NCBI RefSeq assembly: GCF_048403405.1
Contig: NZ_CP183134.1
Source of the DNA: Escherichia coli
Lineage (GTDB): Bacteria > Pseudomonadota > Gammaproteobacteria > Enterobacterales > Enterobacteriaceae
Reading direction: 5' to 3' (one strand)
DNA length: 8,150 nt
Numbering within the stretch: position 1 is the stretch's first letter; each line of letters starts with the position of its first letter. The notes below the pieces were generated by a model that saw only the letters and a program-made list of their open reading frames with translations, was not told the origin of the DNA and did not search any database. This document shows, piece after piece, positions 1 through 8,150 of the stretch. A program made the translations under genes and the position numbers.

Positions 1-653
1 TCTGTTTCGATACCGCGTGTTTCCATCGCACAGGCAGACTTTCCGAGGTGAATACCCGGCGTTTTCTCAAGCCCCTGTCGCTCGTATGAACGATGGTCTA
101 TCTCTTTCTGATAACCGGCGTTCGCCAGTGCCCTGTTTGCATGGTCAGCCCATGATGCACGCCACGTCTCGGCATGTGTCCGGTCGTTCCAGTCCCTGAC
201 CTTTCCGCCGAACCCCGCAGGTCCGACAGCCCTCGTGGTCAGCATAATGTGCGCATGGGGATTTGTTTTATCCATGTGATGGAACGCCACATCAGCAATC
301 ATGCCCTGACTGACAAAGTTTTCTCTGACAAAGGCGAGAACGGTTTCCCGTGCGGCATCCTGCGGCAGTTCGTGGGGGATGGCGAGTTCAATTTCCCGCG
401 CAAGTTGTGAGTTCTTCCGGCGTTCGGCCTTCTCAACGGCATTCCAGAGTTCGGCACGGTTCGTACACCAGGCAGGGGCTGTCGCGGGGGTCAGAATCAC
501 AGCCTCAGCCACACCGCTTTTGCGGGTGTAGTCGTGAGTCAGTCCGGTACGCTCATCAAGCATTAGTGAACCAGAACGATAGGCAGCAGAAGCAACGGCG
601 CTGTAGCCGTTGCTTCTGGAGATGATTTTCATACTGAGATGATAAATCGCCAT
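1..653 (-). CDS. mobA: MobA/MobL-family relaxase (MOBQ-like), 5' portion only (N-terminal ~217 codons); remainder lies before the window start
   Basis: Identical to 4075-4727, which is the 5' end of the full mobA at 2562-4727. ATG on minus strand at 651-653. Not in the ORF track because it runs off the window edge. Confidence 0.8.
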   Translation of the reverse strand, partial: MAIYHLSMKIISRSNGYSAVASAAYRSGSLMLDERTGLTHDYTRKSGVAEAVILTPATAPAWCTNRAELWNAVEKAERRKNSQLAREIELAIPHELPQDAARETVLAFVRENFVSQGMIADVAFHHMDKTNPHAHIMLTTRAVGPAGFGGKVRDWNDRTHAETWRASWADHANRALANAGYQKEIDHRSYERQGLEKTPGIHLGKSACAMETRGIET

Positions 654-831
654 TTCTGCCGTAATGCCTTTTTGCAGTTTTCTTTCAGCCCCGCAGGGCG
701 CACACAATCGAAACGGAGTGGAGATTGTATAAGTGCGCATTTCGTGATTTGCCGTGCATTATGCCAGCTCAGTTTTTAAACTACCAGTGACGCGCTAAAA
801 TGCGATTTTTCATCGCGCATGGAGTTACATC
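654..831. other. Putative oriT in the mobA-mobC divergent intergenic region (nic-like motif TAAGTGCGC at 730-738, inverted repeat ACAATC 704-709 / GATTGT 723-728)
   Basis: The motif gtATAAGTGCGCat resembles the MOBQ/RSF1010-type nic core (GTAAGTGCGCCCT as I recall it) and is immediately preceded by an inverted repeat. Position between divergent relaxase and accessory genes matches RSF1010-type organisation. Confidence 0.5.
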
Positions 832-1086
832 ATGAGCAGAACGCTCGAACAGAAGATTGCTGATGCTGAGGCGAGATTACAGCGCCTGAAGGCGAAGAGC
901 CGGAGCCTGGACACAGCGCAGAAGGTCATTGTGGGTGCAGCATTGCTGGCAAAGGTCAGAAAGCCGGAGGAAGTGCAGTTGCGAGCCTGGTTACTCCAGT
1001 TCCTGAAGGCAGAGGTGACACGGCAGGCTGATGTGACGCGAATACTGCCGCTGATTAACGAGCTGGAGGCGCTGCCAGAGCAGTGA
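832..1086 (+). CDS. mobC: MobC-like relaxosome accessory protein (84 aa)
   Basis: Complete ORF with ATG at 832 and GGAG Shine-Dalgarno at 821-824. Divergent from mobA across the putative oriT. The segment QKVIVGAALLAKVRKPEEVQLRAWLLQFL resembles RSF1010 MobC (RKVLVGAMILAKV...) from memory. Confidence 0.65.
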   Translation: MSRTLEQKIADAEARLQRLKAKSRSLDTAQKVIVGAALLAKVRKPEEVQLRAWLLQFLKAEVTRQADVTRILPLINELEALPEQ

Positions 1087-1095
1087 TTGTATCGT

Positions 1096-1155
1096 CCGCT
1101 CGCCGCAGCCCAGCGACCGAGCGTTAGCGAGCGAGTGGGCGAGGAAGCGGAAGTG
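1096..1155. other. ColE1/pMB1-like conserved segment, possible single-strand initiation / primosome assembly site
   Basis: ccgctcgccgcagcccagcgaccgagcgttagcgagcgagtgggcgaggaagcggaagtg is about 85% identical, by eye, to the pBR322/pUC segment ccgctcgccgcagccgaacgaccgagcgcagcgagtcagtgagcgaggaagcggaagag that lies next to the pMB1 DnaA box. Function is inferred, not shown. Confidence 0.35.
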
Positions 1156-1236
1156 AATCAGTCGCCATGTTGAGCACATACGCACGGTTTTTCGACAGGT
1201 GATATGCGCTGAACCCGCATGAATACTGGATTTCCA

Positions 1237-1281
1237 CAGGATTGGAGGGGGTGTATTCGGAATCTTCAATCCTGGTTTTTT
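1237..1281 (+). terminator. Hairpin followed by T6; candidate intrinsic terminator downstream of mobC, or a structured ori element
   Basis: 8-bp stem CAGGATTG (1237-1244) / CAATCCTG (1267-1274), 22-nt loop, then tttttt at 1276-1281. The loop is unusually long for a canonical terminator. Confidence 0.3.
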
Positions 1282-1325
1282 GCAAAACATTGTTTTTATT
1301 GGATTTTTATTTTCAGCACCCCAAG

Positions 1326-1334
1326 TTATCCACA
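1326..1334 (+). promoter_or_regulatory. DnaA box (TTATCCACA, perfect consensus)
   Basis: Exact 9-mer TTATCCACA, directly upstream of the AT-rich region and iterons. Confidence 0.6.
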
Positions 1335-1431
1335 GGCTCGCCGTTAAGTTTTTAAGATCTTATTTTTAGATCTTTTTTTTTAAAACCTTTTTAGGTCTTG
1401 TAACCACATGATTTTAAAGGTGTTCTGGCGA
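1335..1431. other. AT-rich region of the vegetative origin, with two GATC sites (1356-1359, 1369-1372)
   Basis: Long A/T runs (gttaagtttttaagatcttatttttagatctttttttttaaaacctttttagg) between the DnaA box and the iterons. Layout resembles pSC101-type origins. Confidence 0.5.
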
Positions 1432-1519
1432 GATAGGTGGAGCTTTTGGGGGTGATAGGTGGAGCTTTTGGGGGTGATAGGTGGAGCTTTTGGGGGTGAT
1501 AAGTGGAGCTTTTGGGGGT
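1432..1519 (+). repeat. Iterons: 4 tandem 22-bp direct repeats GATAGGTGGAGCTTTTGGGGGT (the fourth has one mismatch, GATAAGTGG)
   Basis: Perfect head-to-tail repeats at 1432-1453, 1454-1475, 1476-1497 and 1498-1519, immediately upstream of a Rep_3 initiator gene. Confidence 0.85.
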
Positions 1520-1540
1520 GTAATCCACAGAAAAAAGGGG

Positions 1541-1570
1541 TTGCAAAAAAAAAACTTCCACCAATATGAT
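1541..1570 (+). promoter_or_regulatory. Putative repA promoter (-35 TTGCAA 1541-1546, 18-bp spacer, -10 TATGAT 1565-1570)
   Basis: Sigma70-like hexamers about 49 nt upstream of the repA ATG. The -10 overlaps an iteron-like half-site GATAGGTGG at 1568-1576. Confidence 0.4.
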
Positions 1571-1598
1571 AGGTGGCGTACAGTAAAAAAACGCCACC
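1558..1598. promoter_or_regulatory. Inverted repeats carrying iteron half-sites; putative RepA autoregulatory operator
   Basis: CCACC (1558-1562) pairs with GGTGG (1572-1576), and GGTGGCG (1572-1578) pairs with CGCCACC (1592-1598). Both overlap or flank the putative -10. Iteron-family plasmids typically have such operators. Confidence 0.45.
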
Positions 1599-1618
1599 AA
1601 TAGCAACGAGCAAGCGAA

Positions 1619-2320
1619 ATGTCAGATCTGATAGCTTACAAATCAAACGCCCTTATCGAGGCAAGCTACAAGCTCACTTTGCAGGAACAGCGCTTCCTGC
1701 TGGTCTGTATCAGCCGCCTGAAATCCGGAGAAGATTCCCCTTCGCCGGATGAACAAAAAACCATGACCATCACGGCTGCAGAGTTTCATGATGCCTTTCC
1801 TGACATGGGACGGCAGCACGCTGAAGCTAGGCTCAAGGAAGCGATAGATCGCCTCTGGGACAGGTCAGTAATCATCAAGAACGAGGAAAAACGAGAAGAG
1901 TTCCGCTGGGTGCAGTACCGGGCGCAGTATTTCAAAGGTGAGGCGAAAGTAGAGATCACCTTCTCCGATGCCATCATGCCGTATCTGACACAGCTCAAGG
2001 GGCAGTTTACGCGGGTAGTCGTGAAGAACGTCTCCAGCCTCTCCAGCACCTACAGCATCCGCATTTACGAGCTGCTCCAGCAGTTCCGCAGCACCGGTGA
2101 CAGAACGATAGCTATCGATGATTTCCGAACCATGCTTGCCGTTGAAGATAAATATCAACAATTCAAAGACTTGAATAAGATGATAATCAAGCCAGCCATC
2201 GCCGAACTGAACGAAAAAAGCGATCTGGTTGTAACGGTTGAGACGATCAAAAAGGGGCGCACGGTTGTAGCCCTGCACTTTCGCTTCAAGGAAGACAAAC
2301 AGATCAAGATGACGATCTAG
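1619..2320 (+). CDS. repA: Rep_3-family iteron-binding replication initiator (233 aa)
   Basis: Complete ORF directly downstream of the iterons. N-terminus MSDLIAYKSNALIEASYKLTLQEQRFLLVCISRL and later segments (ITFSDAIMPYLTQLK, YSIRIYELLQQF) resemble pSC101/pPS10-type RepA as I recall them. Weak Shine-Dalgarno. Confidence 0.88.
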   Translation: MSDLIAYKSNALIEASYKLTLQEQRFLLVCISRLKSGEDSPSPDEQKTMTITAAEFHDAFPDMGRQHAEARLKEAIDRLWDRSVIIKNEEKREEFRWVQYRAQYFKGEAKVEITFSDAIMPYLTQLKGQFTRVVVKNVSSLSSTYSIRIYELLQQFRSTGDRTIAIDDFRTMLAVEDKYQQFKDLNKMIIKPAIAELNEKSDLVVTVETIKKGRTVVALHFRFKEDKQIKMTI

Positions 2321-2339
2321 AATCGATTTTAAGGCACCT

Positions 2340-2366
2340 AAAACGCTCACTGTCGCGTTTTTCTTG
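2340..2366 (+). terminator. Weak hairpin plus T-run downstream of repA
   Basis: AAAACGC (2340-2346) / GCGTTTT (2355-2361) with an 8-nt loop, followed by ttcttg. The stem is AT-rich, so this would be weak at best. Confidence 0.25.
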
Positions 2367-2427
2367 TGTCAGGAATGCGAAGGTACTATTGAAGTGAAAA
2401 GTTGCGTCAAAAACGCTCTGATGCAGC

Positions 2428-2454
2428 AAAAAAAGAACCCCCAATTTTTGGGGG
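2428..2454 (-). terminator. Rho-independent terminator for minus-strand (mobA) transcription
   Basis: GC-rich hairpin CCCCCAA-ttt-TTGGGGG (2438-2454). On the minus strand it is followed by a U-run (the A7 at 2428-2434 on plus). About 108 nt downstream of the mobA stop. Confidence 0.5.
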
Positions 2455-2561
2455 CGGAAAAACAAAACTATGTTTGCGCTATGTGAGTGTGCTTCTTGCA
2501 TTCATCCCTGTCGATGAACATCGACGAACATAACACGATGTTAAACAAAACAAAATATTGT

Positions 2562-4727
2562 TCACATTCCCTGTGACCAACCGCGATCAGGTCTCCTCTC
2601 GGTGGCGTGTGTTCGTGCATCTTCCTCGCGCCGCCATTCGTCCCAGGTACGATTGAAACCCAGCGAGCGGAACAGATGATCCGGCTGTTTTTCTGGTGTG
2701 TTGACGACAGCAAAAAGCGGTGCCTCACGGGTTTTCAGATGAAACTCCATAAGTTCCGGTGCAGGTGATATGTGGCTGTCTGCATCATGATTTACGGCAA
2801 CACCATACCCTGCATACCGTAACCCCTTATCGGTCAGTGCACTGATAACCAGCTGGCTGTTATCGGCTGAGGGAACGGCAAACGCGGGATACAGCGTACC
2901 ATTAAGCCGGACAACACCGCCCAGAGAGTCATCCACGCCCATGACCAGCAAAAGCTGAAGCTGGCGGGTTTCCCGGTCGACAGAACTCATGACCGGCATC
3001 AGCGTCGGTGGCAGACGTCCCTGCGTAAAATCCACCTTCCTTGCTGCCAGTGATGGCATGGCTGGCTGGCGGTCTTCTCCAAGACAGAAAGACTCCGGCC
3101 ATGTCTTCGGCTGGCGGAGATTGCGGGTATGTTGCGGCCATGTCTGGCAAACCTGCGTCAGAAGTTGCTCAAAGGTCGCAGAGGAATAAATACGTTGCAG
3201 TGGTGGATGTTGGCCGATTTCGCTTCGGTCACAGATATAACCACTCCTGTCACGTATTAAATCAACACTCTCAAAGATCCTGGTGCGGTATTTCTCCAGC
3301 TCGTTCCCCCAGAGCGTGTATTCTCCGTTCCGGTTGTGAAGCAGAAGGTAACAAGTCATTTCCCCGTTACCAGGCATGGGAGCCTCGCCATACCCCGTAA
3401 CGACTGCTCTCAGCACCCCTGAATCCATAACGGCATTGTCATTTTTCCTGAGCTGTTCCGCTCGTCGCTCCGCGCGACTACGTTCTGTATCCTCCAGCTC
3501 CTTCCGGCGTAATTCATCTTCACGTTTAAGCAACTGGGCTCTGAGAGCTGCAAGGCCGGATTCCCCCCACTGCTGCCACTGTTTTTCAAATGCCGTCTGA
3601 CTCGCGGGAATGTCCTGTTTCTCCACCTTCCGGTAATGCTGTCGCAATTTTTCCATTTGCTGGCTCAGAGACTGGATTTTTCCCTGCTCACTACGGTATT
3701 CCGGTGCAGCCCATTGCATCAGGGGAATACGGGAAAAACCGGACGAAAACGGCGATGATTTTTTCAGGCTGGCAGCATGGCTCATCGCTTCCTTTCGTTC
3801 GGTGTTCAGCTCTTCCCAGCGTCTGCGCGTCGCCTGCATATCTGCCATCATCGACATGGCGTTACTGGTGAGTTTCCATGCCGCGTTACTGTCCTTCGGC
3901 AACGCTTCGATGATGTCACGTAGTGTGTACGAAGTTGCGTTGTCAGGAAGCCCGATATTCAGAAGGTCAGCCACACGGCGGGCAGGCTCTGTCAGCCCGC
4001 TGTTCCTGAGTTCGGTGCGGGAAATCTGTATTTCCAGGTTAAGCCTGTTAATCAGACGATTCTGTTCGCCGCGTTCTGTTTCGATACCGCGTGTTTCCAT
4101 CGCACAGGCAGACTTTCCGAGGTGAATACCCGGCGTTTTCTCAAGCCCCTGTCGCTCGTATGAACGATGGTCTATCTCTTTCTGATAACCGGCGTTCGCC
4201 AGTGCCCTGTTTGCATGGTCAGCCCATGATGCACGCCACGTCTCGGCATGTGTCCGGTCGTTCCAGTCCCTGACCTTTCCGCCGAACCCCGCAGGTCCGA
4301 CAGCCCTCGTGGTCAGCATAATGTGCGCATGGGGATTTGTTTTATCCATGTGATGGAACGCCACATCAGCAATCATGCCCTGACTGACAAAGTTTTCTCT
4401 GACAAAGGCGAGAACGGTTTCCCGTGCGGCATCCTGCGGCAGTTCGTGGGGGATGGCGAGTTCAATTTCCCGCGCAAGTTGTGAGTTCTTCCGGCGTTCG
4501 GCCTTCTCAACGGCATTCCAGAGTTCGGCACGGTTCGTACACCAGGCAGGGGCTGTCGCGGGGGTCAGAATCACAGCCTCAGCCACACCGCTTTTGCGGG
4601 TGTAGTCGTGAGTCAGTCCGGTACGCTCATCAAGCATTAGTGAACCAGAACGATAGGCAGCAGAAGCAACGGCGCTGTAGCCGTTGCTTCTGGAGATGAT
4701 TTTCATACTGAGATGATAAATCGCCAT
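2562..4727 (-). CDS. mobA: MobA/MobL-family relaxase, MOBQ-like (721 aa from the MAIYHL start; the ORF track extends to an upstream ATG at 4814)
   Basis: N-terminal MAIYHLSMKIISRSNGYSAVASAAYRSG (Tyr at residue 25, as in RSF1010 MobA), histidine motif NPHAHIML, and WADHANRAL, IDHRSYERQG, GIHLGKS, METRGI all parallel RSF1010 MobA motifs. The upstream ATG at 4812-4814 overlaps the nic-like motif and has no Shine-Dalgarno. Confidence 0.85.
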   Translation of the reverse strand: MAIYHLSMKIISRSNGYSAVASAAYRSGSLMLDERTGLTHDYTRKSGVAEAVILTPATAPAWCTNRAELWNAVEKAERRKNSQLAREIELAIPHELPQDAARETVLAFVRENFVSQGMIADVAFHHMDKTNPHAHIMLTTRAVGPAGFGGKVRDWNDRTHAETWRASWADHANRALANAGYQKEIDHRSYERQGLEKTPGIHLGKSACAMETRGIETERGEQNRLINRLNLEIQISRTELRNSGLTEPARRVADLLNIGLPDNATSYTLRDIIEALPKDSNAAWKLTSNAMSMMADMQATRRRWEELNTERKEAMSHAASLKKSSPFSSGFSRIPLMQWAAPEYRSEQGKIQSLSQQMEKLRQHYRKVEKQDIPASQTAFEKQWQQWGESGLAALRAQLLKREDELRRKELEDTERSRAERRAEQLRKNDNAVMDSGVLRAVVTGYGEAPMPGNGEMTCYLLLHNRNGEYTLWGNELEKYRTRIFESVDLIRDRSGYICDRSEIGQHPPLQRIYSSATFEQLLTQVCQTWPQHTRNLRQPKTWPESFCLGEDRQPAMPSLAARKVDFTQGRLPPTLMPVMSSVDRETRQLQLLLVMGVDDSLGGVVRLNGTLYPAFAVPSADNSQLVISALTDKGLRYAGYGVAVNHDADSHISPAPELMEFHLKTREAPLFAVVNTPEKQPDHLFRSLGFNRTWDEWRREEDARTHATERRPDRGWSQGM

Positions 4728-4905
4728 TTCTGCCGTAATGCCTTTTTGCAGTTTTCTTTCAGCCCCGCAGGGCGCACACAATCGAAACGGAGTGGAGATT
4801 GTATAAGTGCGCATTTCGTGATTTGCCGTGCATTATGCCAGCTCAGTTTTTAAACTACCAGTGACGCGCTAAAATGCGATTTTTCATCGCGCATGGAGTT
4901 ACATC
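4728..4905. other. Putative oriT, copy 2 (nic-like motif at 4804-4812)
   Basis: Identical to 654-831. Confidence 0.5.
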
Positions 4906-5160
4906 ATGAGCAGAACGCTCGAACAGAAGATTGCTGATGCTGAGGCGAGATTACAGCGCCTGAAGGCGAAGAGCCGGAGCCTGGACACAGCGCAGAAGGT
5001 CATTGTGGGTGCAGCATTGCTGGCAAAGGTCAGAAAGCCGGAGGAAGTGCAGTTGCGAGCCTGGTTACTCCAGTTCCTGAAGGCAGAGGTGACACGGCAG
5101 GCTGATGTGACGCGAATACTGCCGCTGATTAACGAGCTGGAGGCGCTGCCAGAGCAGTGA
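4906..5160 (+). CDS. mobC: MobC-like relaxosome accessory protein, copy 2
   Basis: Identical to 832-1086. Confidence 0.65.
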   Translation: MSRTLEQKIADAEARLQRLKAKSRSLDTAQKVIVGAALLAKVRKPEEVQLRAWLLQFLKAEVTRQADVTRILPLINELEALPEQ

Positions 5161-5169
5161 TTGTATCGT

Positions 5170-5229
5170 CCGCTCGCCGCAGCCCAGCGACCGAGCGTTA
5201 GCGAGCGAGTGGGCGAGGAAGCGGAAGTG
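5170..5229. other. ColE1/pMB1-like conserved segment (possible primosome assembly site), copy 2
   Basis: Identical to 1096-1155. Confidence 0.35.
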
Positions 5230-5310
5230 AATCAGTCGCCATGTTGAGCACATACGCACGGTTTTTCGACAGGTGATATGCGCTGAACCCGCATGAATAC
5301 TGGATTTCCA

Positions 5311-5355
5311 CAGGATTGGAGGGGGTGTATTCGGAATCTTCAATCCTGGTTTTTT
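5311..5355 (+). terminator. Hairpin plus T6, copy 2
   Basis: Identical to 1237-1281. Confidence 0.3.
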
Positions 5356-5399
5356 GCAAAACATTGTTTTTATTGGATTTTTATTTTCAGCACCCCAAG

Positions 5400-5408
5400 T
5401 TATCCACA
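5400..5408 (+). promoter_or_regulatory. DnaA box TTATCCACA, copy 2
   Basis: Identical to 1326-1334. Confidence 0.6.
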
Positions 5409-5505
5409 GGCTCGCCGTTAAGTTTTTAAGATCTTATTTTTAGATCTTTTTTTTTAAAACCTTTTTAGGTCTTGTAACCACATGATTTTAAAGGTGTTCT
5501 GGCGA
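5409..5505. other. AT-rich origin region with two GATC sites, copy 2
   Basis: Identical to 1335-1431. Confidence 0.5.
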
Positions 5506-5593
5506 GATAGGTGGAGCTTTTGGGGGTGATAGGTGGAGCTTTTGGGGGTGATAGGTGGAGCTTTTGGGGGTGATAAGTGGAGCTTTTGGGGGT
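5506..5593 (+). repeat. Iterons, 4 x 22 bp, copy 2
   Basis: Identical to 1432-1519. Confidence 0.85.
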
Positions 5594-5614
5594 GTAATCC
5601 ACAGAAAAAAGGGG

Positions 5615-5644
5615 TTGCAAAAAAAAAACTTCCACCAATATGAT
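5615..5644 (+). promoter_or_regulatory. Putative repA promoter, copy 2
   Basis: Identical to 1541-1570. Confidence 0.4.
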
Positions 5645-5672
5645 AGGTGGCGTACAGTAAAAAAACGCCACC
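5632..5672. promoter_or_regulatory. Inverted-repeat operator, copy 2
   Basis: Identical to 1558-1598. Confidence 0.45.
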
Positions 5673-5692
5673 AATAGCAACGAGCAAGCGAA

Positions 5693-6394
5693 ATGTCAGA
5701 TCTGATAGCTTACAAATCAAACGCCCTTATCGAGGCAAGCTACAAGCTCACTTTGCAGGAACAGCGCTTCCTGCTGGTCTGTATCAGCCGCCTGAAATCC
5801 GGAGAAGATTCCCCTTCGCCGGATGAACAAAAAACCATGACCATCACGGCTGCAGAGTTTCATGATGCCTTTCCTGACATGGGACGGCAGCACGCTGAAG
5901 CTAGGCTCAAGGAAGCGATAGATCGCCTCTGGGACAGGTCAGTAATCATCAAGAACGAGGAAAAACGAGAAGAGTTCCGCTGGGTGCAGTACCGGGCGCA
6001 GTATTTCAAAGGTGAGGCGAAAGTAGAGATCACCTTCTCCGATGCCATCATGCCGTATCTGACACAGCTCAAGGGGCAGTTTACGCGGGTAGTCGTGAAG
6101 AACGTCTCCAGCCTCTCCAGCACCTACAGCATCCGCATTTACGAGCTGCTCCAGCAGTTCCGCAGCACCGGTGACAGAACGATAGCTATCGATGATTTCC
6201 GAACCATGCTTGCCGTTGAAGATAAATATCAACAATTCAAAGACTTGAATAAGATGATAATCAAGCCAGCCATCGCCGAACTGAACGAAAAAAGCGATCT
6301 GGTTGTAACGGTTGAGACGATCAAAAAGGGGCGCACGGTTGTAGCCCTGCACTTTCGCTTCAAGGAAGACAAACAGATCAAGATGACGATCTAG
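5693..6394 (+). CDS. repA: Rep_3-family replication initiator, copy 2
   Basis: Protein identical to 1619-2320. Confidence 0.88.
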   Translation: MSDLIAYKSNALIEASYKLTLQEQRFLLVCISRLKSGEDSPSPDEQKTMTITAAEFHDAFPDMGRQHAEARLKEAIDRLWDRSVIIKNEEKREEFRWVQYRAQYFKGEAKVEITFSDAIMPYLTQLKGQFTRVVVKNVSSLSSTYSIRIYELLQQFRSTGDRTIAIDDFRTMLAVEDKYQQFKDLNKMIIKPAIAELNEKSDLVVTVETIKKGRTVVALHFRFKEDKQIKMTI

Positions 6395-6413
6395 AATCGA
6401 TTTTAAGGCACCT

Positions 6414-6440
6414 AAAACGCTCACTGTCGCGTTTTTCTTG
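6414..6440 (+). terminator. Weak hairpin plus T-run downstream of repA, copy 2
   Basis: Identical to 2340-2366. Confidence 0.25.
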
Positions 6441-6501
6441 TGTCAGGAATGCGAAGGTACTATTGAAGTGAAAAGTTGCGTCAAAAACGCTCTGATGCAG
6501 C

Positions 6502-6528
6502 AAAAAAAGAACCCCCAATTTTTGGGGG
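6502..6528 (-). terminator. Rho-independent terminator for mobA, copy 2
   Basis: Identical to 2428-2454. Confidence 0.5.
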
Positions 6529-6635
6529 CGGAAAAACAAAACTATGTTTGCGCTATGTGAGTGTGCTTCTTGCATTCATCCCTGTCGATGAACATCGACG
6601 AACATAACACGATGTTAAACAAAACAAAATATTGT

Positions 6636-8150
6636 TCACATTCCCTGTGACCAACCGCGATCAGGTCTCCTCTCGGTGGCGTGTGTTCGTGCATCTTCCT
6701 CGCGCCGCCATTCGTCCCAGGTACGATTGAAACCCAGCGAGCGGAACAGATGATCCGGCTGTTTTTCTGGTGTGTTGACGACAGCAAAAAGCGGTGCCTC
6801 ACGGGTTTTCAGATGAAACTCCATAAGTTCCGGTGCAGGTGATATGTGGCTGTCTGCATCATGATTTACGGCAACACCATACCCTGCATACCGTAACCCC
6901 TTATCGGTCAGTGCACTGATAACCAGCTGGCTGTTATCGGCTGAGGGAACGGCAAACGCGGGATACAGCGTACCATTAAGCCGGACAACACCGCCCAGAG
7001 AGTCATCCACGCCCATGACCAGCAAAAGCTGAAGCTGGCGGGTTTCCCGGTCGACAGAACTCATGACCGGCATCAGCGTCGGTGGCAGACGTCCCTGCGT
7101 AAAATCCACCTTCCTTGCTGCCAGTGATGGCATGGCTGGCTGGCGGTCTTCTCCAAGACAGAAAGACTCCGGCCATGTCTTCGGCTGGCGGAGATTGCGG
7201 GTATGTTGCGGCCATGTCTGGCAAACCTGCGTCAGAAGTTGCTCAAAGGTCGCAGAGGAATAAATACGTTGCAGTGGTGGATGTTGGCCGATTTCGCTTC
7301 GGTCACAGATATAACCACTCCTGTCACGTATTAAATCAACACTCTCAAAGATCCTGGTGCGGTATTTCTCCAGCTCGTTCCCCCAGAGCGTGTATTCTCC
7401 GTTCCGGTTGTGAAGCAGAAGGTAACAAGTCATTTCCCCGTTACCAGGCATGGGAGCCTCGCCATACCCCGTAACGACTGCTCTCAGCACCCCTGAATCC
7501 ATAACGGCATTGTCATTTTTCCTGAGCTGTTCCGCTCGTCGCTCCGCGCGACTACGTTCTGTATCCTCCAGCTCCTTCCGGCGTAATTCATCTTCACGTT
7601 TAAGCAACTGGGCTCTGAGAGCTGCAAGGCCGGATTCCCCCCACTGCTGCCACTGTTTTTCAAATGCCGTCTGACTCGCGGGAATGTCCTGTTTCTCCAC
7701 CTTCCGGTAATGCTGTCGCAATTTTTCCATTTGCTGGCTCAGAGACTGGATTTTTCCCTGCTCACTACGGTATTCCGGTGCAGCCCATTGCATCAGGGGA
7801 ATACGGGAAAAACCGGACGAAAACGGCGATGATTTTTTCAGGCTGGCAGCATGGCTCATCGCTTCCTTTCGTTCGGTGTTCAGCTCTTCCCAGCGTCTGC
7901 GCGTCGCCTGCATATCTGCCATCATCGACATGGCGTTACTGGTGAGTTTCCATGCCGCGTTACTGTCCTTCGGCAACGCTTCGATGATGTCGCGTAGTGT
8001 GTACGAAGTTGCGTTGTCAGGAAGCCCGATATTCAGAAGGTCGAGCCACACGGCGGGCAGGCTCTGTCGGCCCCGCTGTTCCTGAGTTCGGTGCGGGAAA
8101 TCTGTATTTCCAGGTTAGGCCTGTTAATCAGACGATTCTGTTCGCCGCGT
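6636..8150 (-). CDS. mobA: MobA relaxase, copy 2; 5' end runs off the window and carries apparent frameshifts near 8043 and 8071 relative to copy 1
   Basis: Identical to copy 1 up to about 7991. The ORF track ends at a GTG at 8051 because two 1-bp insertions shift the frame. I suspect these are consensus errors at a contig end rather than a true pseudogene. Confidence 0.6.

Follow-up and report, generated by a model that had tools for sequence, protein, structure and literature searches.

Positions 1326-1618 of the stretch of Escherichia coli DNA analysed here (8,150 nt in all, hereafter the window) lie directly upstream of a gene for a replication initiator, and an earlier note, made from the letters alone, had described them as a complete pSC101-like origin module. 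This raises the question of what kind of origin the locus is, which plasmid it drives, how it would work, and whether anything about it goes beyond what is already known. We conclude that 1326-2320 very probably comprises oriV and repA, the basic replicon of a cryptic, mobilizable plasmid (4,074 bp) of the pIGWZ12/MOBQ41 type, and that it would act as a Rep_3 iteron-type theta replicon built like that of pSC101. The origin module of the earlier note stands, although the note did not recognise that the DNA is a catalogued, very common plasmid present twice in the window.

The plasmid and its initiator gene

The window covers a circular plasmid of 4,074 bp about two times over, as its list of open reading frames recurs with an offset of 4,074 bases and positions 1-3968 are the same as 4075-8042 save for one A/G SNP (3918 vs 7992). 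The tail of about 108 bases (8043-8150) carries two 1-nt insertions and a few SNPs, and the last 200 nt are 97.5% identical to the other copy. Foreign DNA or a junction was considered for this tail and ruled out, because it is the same plasmid sequence; we read it as end-of-contig noise, and the layout as a whole resembles that of a small plasmid assembled in duplicate. Because the window holds the plasmid twice, the origin module is found again at 5400-5692, shifted by 4,074, and the second copy of the module from DnaA box to repA stop spans 5400-6394 on the plus strand.

Three genes were found on the plasmid, namely repA, a MobA/MobL relaxase gene and an 84-aa ORF. The relaxase gene, mobA, occupies 2562-4814 on the minus strand (NCBIfam MobQ, 8.5e-79), and its longest ORF has 750 aa. 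In identical records the MobQ relaxase is given as 721 aa, and family-profile matches to the ORF begin at residue 30; translation of mobA probably starts 29 codons past the first ATG. The 84-aa ORF (832-1086, plus strand) takes the name mobC from the annotation in identical records. The literature puts oriT between the divergent mobA and mobC, which here is 4815-4905 (equal to 741-831), and MOBQ41 backbones have been described with a fourth, usually unannotated 'hypothetical protein' gene (PMC6856555). The spacer between mobC and the DnaA box (1087-1325) contains an 11-nt inverted repeat at 1237-1247/1264-1274, which is 91% complementary.

Many 4,074-bp plasmids from E. coli and Salmonella, pEC648_4 among them, match the plasmid at 99.9% identity, and at least 80% of its length is covered in each of 410 PLSDB records. 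Records at this 99.9% identity have been assigned to rep_cluster_1778/MOBQ, and their annotation tables hold only coding sequences. With a backbone of about 4.07 kb carrying repA, the MOBQ4 relaxase gene mobA and a divergent mobC, the window plasmid is a member of the pIGWZ12/MOBQ41 family (rep_cluster_1778), and it shares with other plasmids of this family, including pEC648_4 and pSMS35_4, both the 4.07-kb backbone and the order repA, mobA, oriT, mobC. The published MOBQ41 list likewise includes pEC648_4, pIGWZ12 and pSMS35_4 (Supplementary Table S2, PMC6856555), and PlasmidFinder assigns the plasmids of this family no group (PMC6856555). The family, with some 480 records in PLSDB, was found in 450 of 5,426 complete E. 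coli genomes (about 8%), with 485 RefSeq records in total; therefore, some genomes carry more than one member, and the surplus over one per genome is about 35 records.

The module is closed by repA, as had been proposed. The gene (1619-2320, plus strand) encodes a 233-aa Rep_3 initiator with WH1 and WH2 domains, and its Pfam matches to Rep3_N (PF01051, 3.1e-41) and Rep3_C (PF21205, 2.7e-22) are both far beyond the curated cut-offs. RepA is 80% identical to pIGWZ12 RepA (E 2e-147), and a sequence search of solved structures in the PDB returned the WH1 domain of pPS10 RepA (1hkq, 9e-14), RepE (8e-12) and pi (4e-5). A consensus scan placed a terminator-like hairpin after repA at 2340-2361 on the plus strand, and no Rfam RNA family matched the replicon at E values up to 1.

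Elements of the origin

The first element of the module is a consensus DnaA box, TTATCCACA, at 1326-1334 on the plus strand. It is the sole exact copy in the 4,074-bp unit, where dinucleotide shuffles lead one to expect 0.01 per plasmid, and it is present in 11 of the 12 family origins compared, the exception being L009 with TTTTCCACA, as well as in both co-resident plasmids of isolate 2021QW-00057. Weaker copies surround it, namely ATTTCCACA at 1230-1238 (two mismatches to TTATCCACA, kept in pIGWZ12), GTAACCACA at 1400 (two mismatches) and TAATCCACA at 1521-1529 (one mismatch), which lies directly 3' of the last iteron and whose equivalent in pIGWZ12, TTATTCACA, fits TTATNCACA exactly. All four copies are on the plus strand. 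Because the whole plasmid has 15 DnaA-box matches at up to two mismatches vs 9 expected, the weak boxes are individually non-significant. The earlier note had the consensus box at the start of the module right, and it also listed TCCACAG at 1233-1240 and 1523-1530; both copies of this motif exist, but they end at 1239 and 1529.

Between the DnaA box and the repeats lies an AT-rich tract (1335-1431), presumed to be the DNA-unwinding element, which is 68% A+T overall and 77% over 1340-1399. The GC minimum of the plasmid falls at 1321-1440 (0.31 vs a mean of 0.515), and the tract is nearly identical across the other replicon subtypes described below. It contains two adjacent 13-mers that begin with GATC (1356-1381, plus strand; Tandem Repeats Finder period 13), GATCTTATTTTTA with two mismatches and GATCTTTTTTTTT without any. 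The latter (1369-1381) is an exact match to the oriC 13-mer consensus GATCTNTTNTTTT, for which 0.01 is expected from shuffles. The two GATC sites 13 bp apart that had been pointed out in this tract are at 1356 and 1369, within the plasmid GC minimum. At the far end of the tract, AATCATGTGGTTA (1401-1413, minus strand) resembles the IHF consensus WATCAANNNNTTR with one mismatch, and since the plasmid has 7 such sites vs 3.2 expected, it is weak alone and non-significant. The equivalent site of pIGWZ12, AATCAATATGTTA, is read as an exact IHF consensus match, and pSC101 has TAACCACTTGAAT at the equivalent position. A further motif, TAACCAC(A/T)TGA, stands between the AT tract and the iterons in both the window and pSC101, and its position in pSC101 is what we take to be the IHF site of that plasmid.

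The iterons follow at 1432-1519 on the plus strand as four tandem 22-bp copies of GATAGGTGGAGCTTTTGGGGGT, with starts at 1432, 1454, 1476 and 1498. Three copies are identical and the fourth (GATAAGTGG...) has one mismatch; Tandem Repeats Finder gives a period of 22, 4.0 copies and 98% matches over 1432-1520. The four phased 22-bp iterons of the earlier note are thus present, with regular 22/22/22 spacing. The array ends 99 nt upstream of the repA ATG, four iterons occupy equivalent positions in all subtypes, and no further copy occurs elsewhere in the plasmid (0 expected in shuffles). Two candidates for additional sites were rejected. A possible fifth, degenerate copy upstream (1405-1431) reaches a similarity of only 61% and is not conserved in other subtypes. 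The palindrome CCCCCAATTTTTGGGGG (2437-2455) resembles the iteron 3' half, and it is not regarded as an extra RepA site because pIGWZ12 has the identical palindrome although its iterons are without that motif. As a feature in its own right, this GC-rich palindrome (ACCCCCAATTTTTGGGGGC) is flanked by repA and mobA, which converge on it, is slightly altered in pSMS35_4, shows no co-variation with the iterons, and looks like a terminator between the two genes (called on the minus strand).

Downstream of the array, a putative repA promoter was located at 1541-1570 on the plus strand (-35 TTGCAA, 18-nt spacer, -10 TATGAT), as a consensus match only. The match alone is at chance level (1 sigma-70-like match found in the 1.4-kb region vs 1.0 expected), and the assignment is supported because the site is upstream of repA and overlaps an operator. 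The inverted repeats sharing the iteron core that had been reported over the putative -10 are present, and they are better described as three half-sites. Half-site 1, TTCCACCAA (1556-1564, minus strand), has the reverse complement TTGGTGGAA, which resembles the iteron core TAGGTGGAG; half-site 2, TAGGTGGCG (1570-1578, plus strand), is in direct orientation; and half-site 3, CGCCACCAA, is at 1592-1600 on the minus strand. The putative -10 sits exactly between half-sites 1 and 2, and half-sites 2 and 3 form an 11-nt inverted repeat (1569-1579/1591-1601, 91% complementary). Three iteron-core half-sites compare with 0.26 in shuffled leaders (P ~0.001). Counted from the end of the last iteron, half-sites 1 and 3 stand at +36 and +72 in all subtypes; half-site 2, at +50, was detected at up to two mismatches in subtypes A, B and C, and subtype D has no +50 half-site at this threshold.

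Mode of replication and relation to known replicons

Three features by which a Rep_3 iteron replicon is recognised, namely a WH1/WH2 initiator, tandem repeats of about 17-22 bp beside rep, and an AT-rich region with a DnaA box, were all found at this locus. The Rep3 domains, the iterons, the origin elements and the family membership agree with the iteron-replicon architecture that had been read from the DNA. In the mechanism we propose, drawn by analogy from pSC101, pPS10 and F, RepA monomers would occupy the four 22-bp iterons, which are in phase, and WH2 may read the iteron 5' core ATAGGTGGAG while WH1 reads the 3' half CTTTTGGGGGT, by analogy with RepE and pPS10. Host DnaA is predicted to bind the consensus box at 1326 and probably also the weaker boxes, and IHF would probably bend the DNA near 1401-1413. 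With RepA, DnaA and IHF acting together, the AT-rich 13-mers that separate the DnaA box from the iterons would then be opened, leading to DnaB loading and theta replication. RepA dimers, using WH2 only, are predicted to bind the half-sites at 1556-1600 and occlude the -10, thereby repressing repA, and the iterons may also set copy number and incompatibility. In the RepE and pPS10 model, the monomer uses both WH domains on an iteron and the dimer uses WH2 alone on the operator. The predicted binding of RepA to both iterons and operator is indirectly supported because the half-sites, the iteron core and the RepA helix-turn-helix segments change together among the subtypes. DnaA dependence and repA autorepression in the window plasmid are predictions from this arrangement.

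The nearest experimental reference is the prototype pIGWZ12 (NC_010885). Its DnaA box and AT-rich 13-mer tract are almost those of the window, its iterons also number four and are followed by a second DnaA-like box, and its three half-sites are offset from the array just as in the window. The difference lies in the repeats, as the window has GATAGGTGGAGCTTTTGGGGGT spaced 22/22/22 and pIGWZ12 has TAAAGGTGGAGGAATTTAAGGT spaced 21/23/21, and the operator half-sites of pIGWZ12 differ from those of the window in line with the iterons. Compared with the pIGWZ12 iteron, that of the window differs in its 3' half and in parts of its core. According to the passages of PMC6856555 that summarise Zaleski (2006, 2012, 2015), pIGWZ12 replicates in theta mode, is stable at about 15 copies, and has an origin upstream of rep and iterons that are incompatibility determinants. 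Autonomous theta replication from ori and rep is reported for this prototype there and in PMC10378824.

This last role leaves room for another reading, in which the role of the 22-bp repeats and the inverted repeats is limited to regulating repA and, through titration or handcuffing, to setting copy number and incompatibility, and replication starts elsewhere on the plasmid. The incompatibility function of the pIGWZ12 iterons is in keeping with this, as is the fact that no sequence feature maps a start site. However, the sole consensus DnaA box, the sole exact oriC-type 13-mer and the GC minimum all adjoin the iterons, the remaining plasmid is filled by repA, mobA, mobC and the oriT interval, and the prototype's origin position, as summarised, is on the side of an origin upstream of repA. 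We regard a start elsewhere as very improbable, because the hallmarks of an origin adjoin the repeats and the rest is coding or oriT.

A rolling-circle or other mode with single-stranded intermediates has been reported for a few small Rep_3 (PF01051) plasmids, namely pNAL8L, pKJ50 and pMG1 (PMC10378824), and would be another reading of the window replicon. We give this the lowest probability of the alternatives, hardly worth entertaining, because theta replication is reported for pIGWZ12 and pSC101, both of which are cited as theta replicons in PMC10378824 and PMC6856555. Moreover, the Pfam scan showed no rolling-circle Rep domain in RepA, and the DnaA box/13-mer/iteron layout is that of a theta origin.

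The iteron-type theta origin that we prefer was termed 'pSC101-like' in the earlier note, and this label is borne out by RepA homology, element order, the DnaA-box flank and the motif at the IHF position. pSC101 (NC_002056) is a low-copy plasmid, and its RepA is homologous to window RepA (33% identity over 238 aa, E 7e-37) without being a close relative. Both origins have a DnaA box, AT-rich 13-mers, the motif at the IHF position, iterons, inverted repeats over the repA promoter, and repA; the pSC101 box TTATACACA and its flank AGTTAT(C/A)CACAGG (AGTTATNCACAGG) align with those of the window, and there is a visible likeness between the pIGWZ12-type iteron TAAAGGTGGAGGAATTTAAGGT and that of pSC101, AAAGGTCTAGCGGAATTTACAGA (AAAGGT...GGAATTTA). 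In contrast, pSC101 has three iterons spaced 21 and 32 bp, whereas the window has four in phase and of other sequence, and the 316-aa pSC101 RepA has an 85-aa C-terminal extension that the 233-aa window RepA lacks. Neither three pSC101-type iterons AAAGGTCTAGCRGAATTTACAGA nor a 316-aa RepA was found in the window. Thus, the window origin is not a pSC101-group replicon, since iteron number, spacing and sequence all differ.

The comparison also bears on whether the host factors are needed, that is, whether this could be an iteron origin that replicates without DnaA or IHF and in which the DnaA box and IHF-like site are dispensable or modulatory. The non-significance of the weak boxes and the IHF-like site and the variant main box TTTTCCACA of L009 point in this direction, and the DnaA contribution differs among iteron plasmids (review PMC4980987). 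Against it, the exact consensus box is unique in the plasmid at an expectation of 0.01, it is kept across subtypes whose iterons have diverged, and it is placed as in the DnaA- and IHF-dependent pSC101. We consider independence from these factors unlikely, although with more to be said for it than for the other two alternatives.

Among plasmids with solved initiator structures, the best sequence match to window RepA is the RepA of pPS10 from Pseudomonas savastanoi. The pPS10 initiator has about 230 aa and its iterons 22 bp, and part of the iteron recurs in an operator inverted repeat; the iteron sequence of pPS10 is unrelated to that of the window and its host is different. F RepE/oriS and R6K pi belong, by sequence, to the same WH1-WH2 Rep_3 fold family as window RepA and are distant, and these plasmids differ from the window in iteron length (19 bp in F) and origin layout. 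The review PMC4980987 gives four iterons for pPS10 and, for F and R6K, the logic of monomers on iterons and dimers on the operator.

The origin is therefore of an already characterised kind, that of the pIGWZ12 family with its pSC101-like Rep_3 replicon, on a very common plasmid. This kind of element is known from the prototype pIGWZ12, in which, according to the summary in PMC6856555, it was discovered and put to the test, and the origin itself adds little, given the experimental dissection of the prototype and a textbook architecture. Its practical value lies in the fact that these common plasmids have no PlasmidFinder group and that their public records hold coding sequences only. The sole mildly new angle is the co-varying structure of the replicon subtypes.

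Replicon subtypes and compatibility

A PLSDB search with the replicon only returned about 132 records at 95% identity or more and about 330 at 60-80%, with few between. Four subtypes were distinguished, namely A (the window type), B (the pIGWZ12 type), C (L008, L010 and L011) and D (pSMS35_4, L009, L012 and L013). All four have in common the DnaA box, the two GATC 13-mers, the four iterons and the second DnaA-like box after the last iteron. They differ in the iteron 5' core, which is GGTGGAG, GTGGAGG, GGTGAGG or GG(C/T)AATATG depending on the subtype, and the operator half-sites of each subtype carry its own 5' core. Subtypes B, C and D all have the same iteron 3' half, ATTTAAGGT, which is missing from the operators; only in the window subtype is it changed, to CTTTTGGGGGT. 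The window subtype is also the most divergent of the four, with a RepA 75-80% identical to those of the other subtypes, which are 86-90% identical among themselves.

The variable RepA positions are not spread evenly. Among the positions that vary within B, C and D, 17 of 39 fall within residues 170-194, and 8 of the 30 window-specific positions fall within residues 56-73, where B, C and D show no variation. In an AlphaFold2 model of RepA (6-sequence alignment, pLDDT 60), used solely to place helices, the helix pairs 166-173/182-200 and 53-59/65-79 cover these two segments; the assignments are approximate because the model confidence is low. The placement is consistent with segments 170-194 and 56-73 being the helix-turn-helix units of WH2 and WH1, respectively.

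On this basis, we lean, by a modest margin of belief, towards the view that rep_cluster_1778 is not one incompatibility group and comprises at least four discrete specificity types, which would combine a near-constant DnaA-box/unwinding module and a constant mobilization backbone with an iteron 5' core, half-sites and RepA WH2 helix-turn-helix (about 170-194) that have changed together, and in the window type also with a changed iteron 3' half and WH1 helix-turn-helix (about 56-73). Because its iterons, half-sites and RepA differ from those of the other subtypes, the window type likely has an incompatibility specificity separate from that of pIGWZ12, as far as this can be judged from sequence comparison. 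A single example of co-residence fits this picture. The E. coli blood isolate 2021QW-00057 carries a 4,063-bp subtype A plasmid (L015, CP117207.1) whose RepA is identical to that of the window, together with a 4,084-bp subtype D plasmid (L016, CP117208.1), which is consistent with A and D being compatible and of distinct specificity. In the literature on rep_cluster_1778 and MOBQ4, no description of replicon subtypes was found, and a 2015 paper on pIGWZ12 might have one.

If the subtypes are indeed mutually compatible, this would explain their co-occurrence in single strains, and if they are real specificity classes, one lumped rep cluster would mislead plasmid epidemiology. The family would also be a natural series for mapping Rep_3 residues to the iteron bases they read, and the subtypes a ready panel for studying Rep_3 iteron recognition and the diversification of incompatibility groups.

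Some members of the family depart from these patterns. Two subtype D plasmids, L012 (CP093092.1) and L013 (NZ_CP033161.1), have a hybrid iteron array about 100-190 nt upstream of repA, in which the third iteron is of the pIGWZ12 type (TTTAGGTGGAGGAATTTAAGGT in L012, GGTGGGGG in L013) and the rest of the array has GG(T/C)AATATG. These hybrid arrays suggest recombination between co-resident subtypes. The first iteron varies in L010 and L011. Finally, the 25 positions directly 3' of the repA stop (2321-2345) read AATCGATTTTAAGGCA in all subtypes, and within it ATTTTAAGG is one T longer than ATTTAAGG, the conserved iteron 3' half of subtypes B, C and D.
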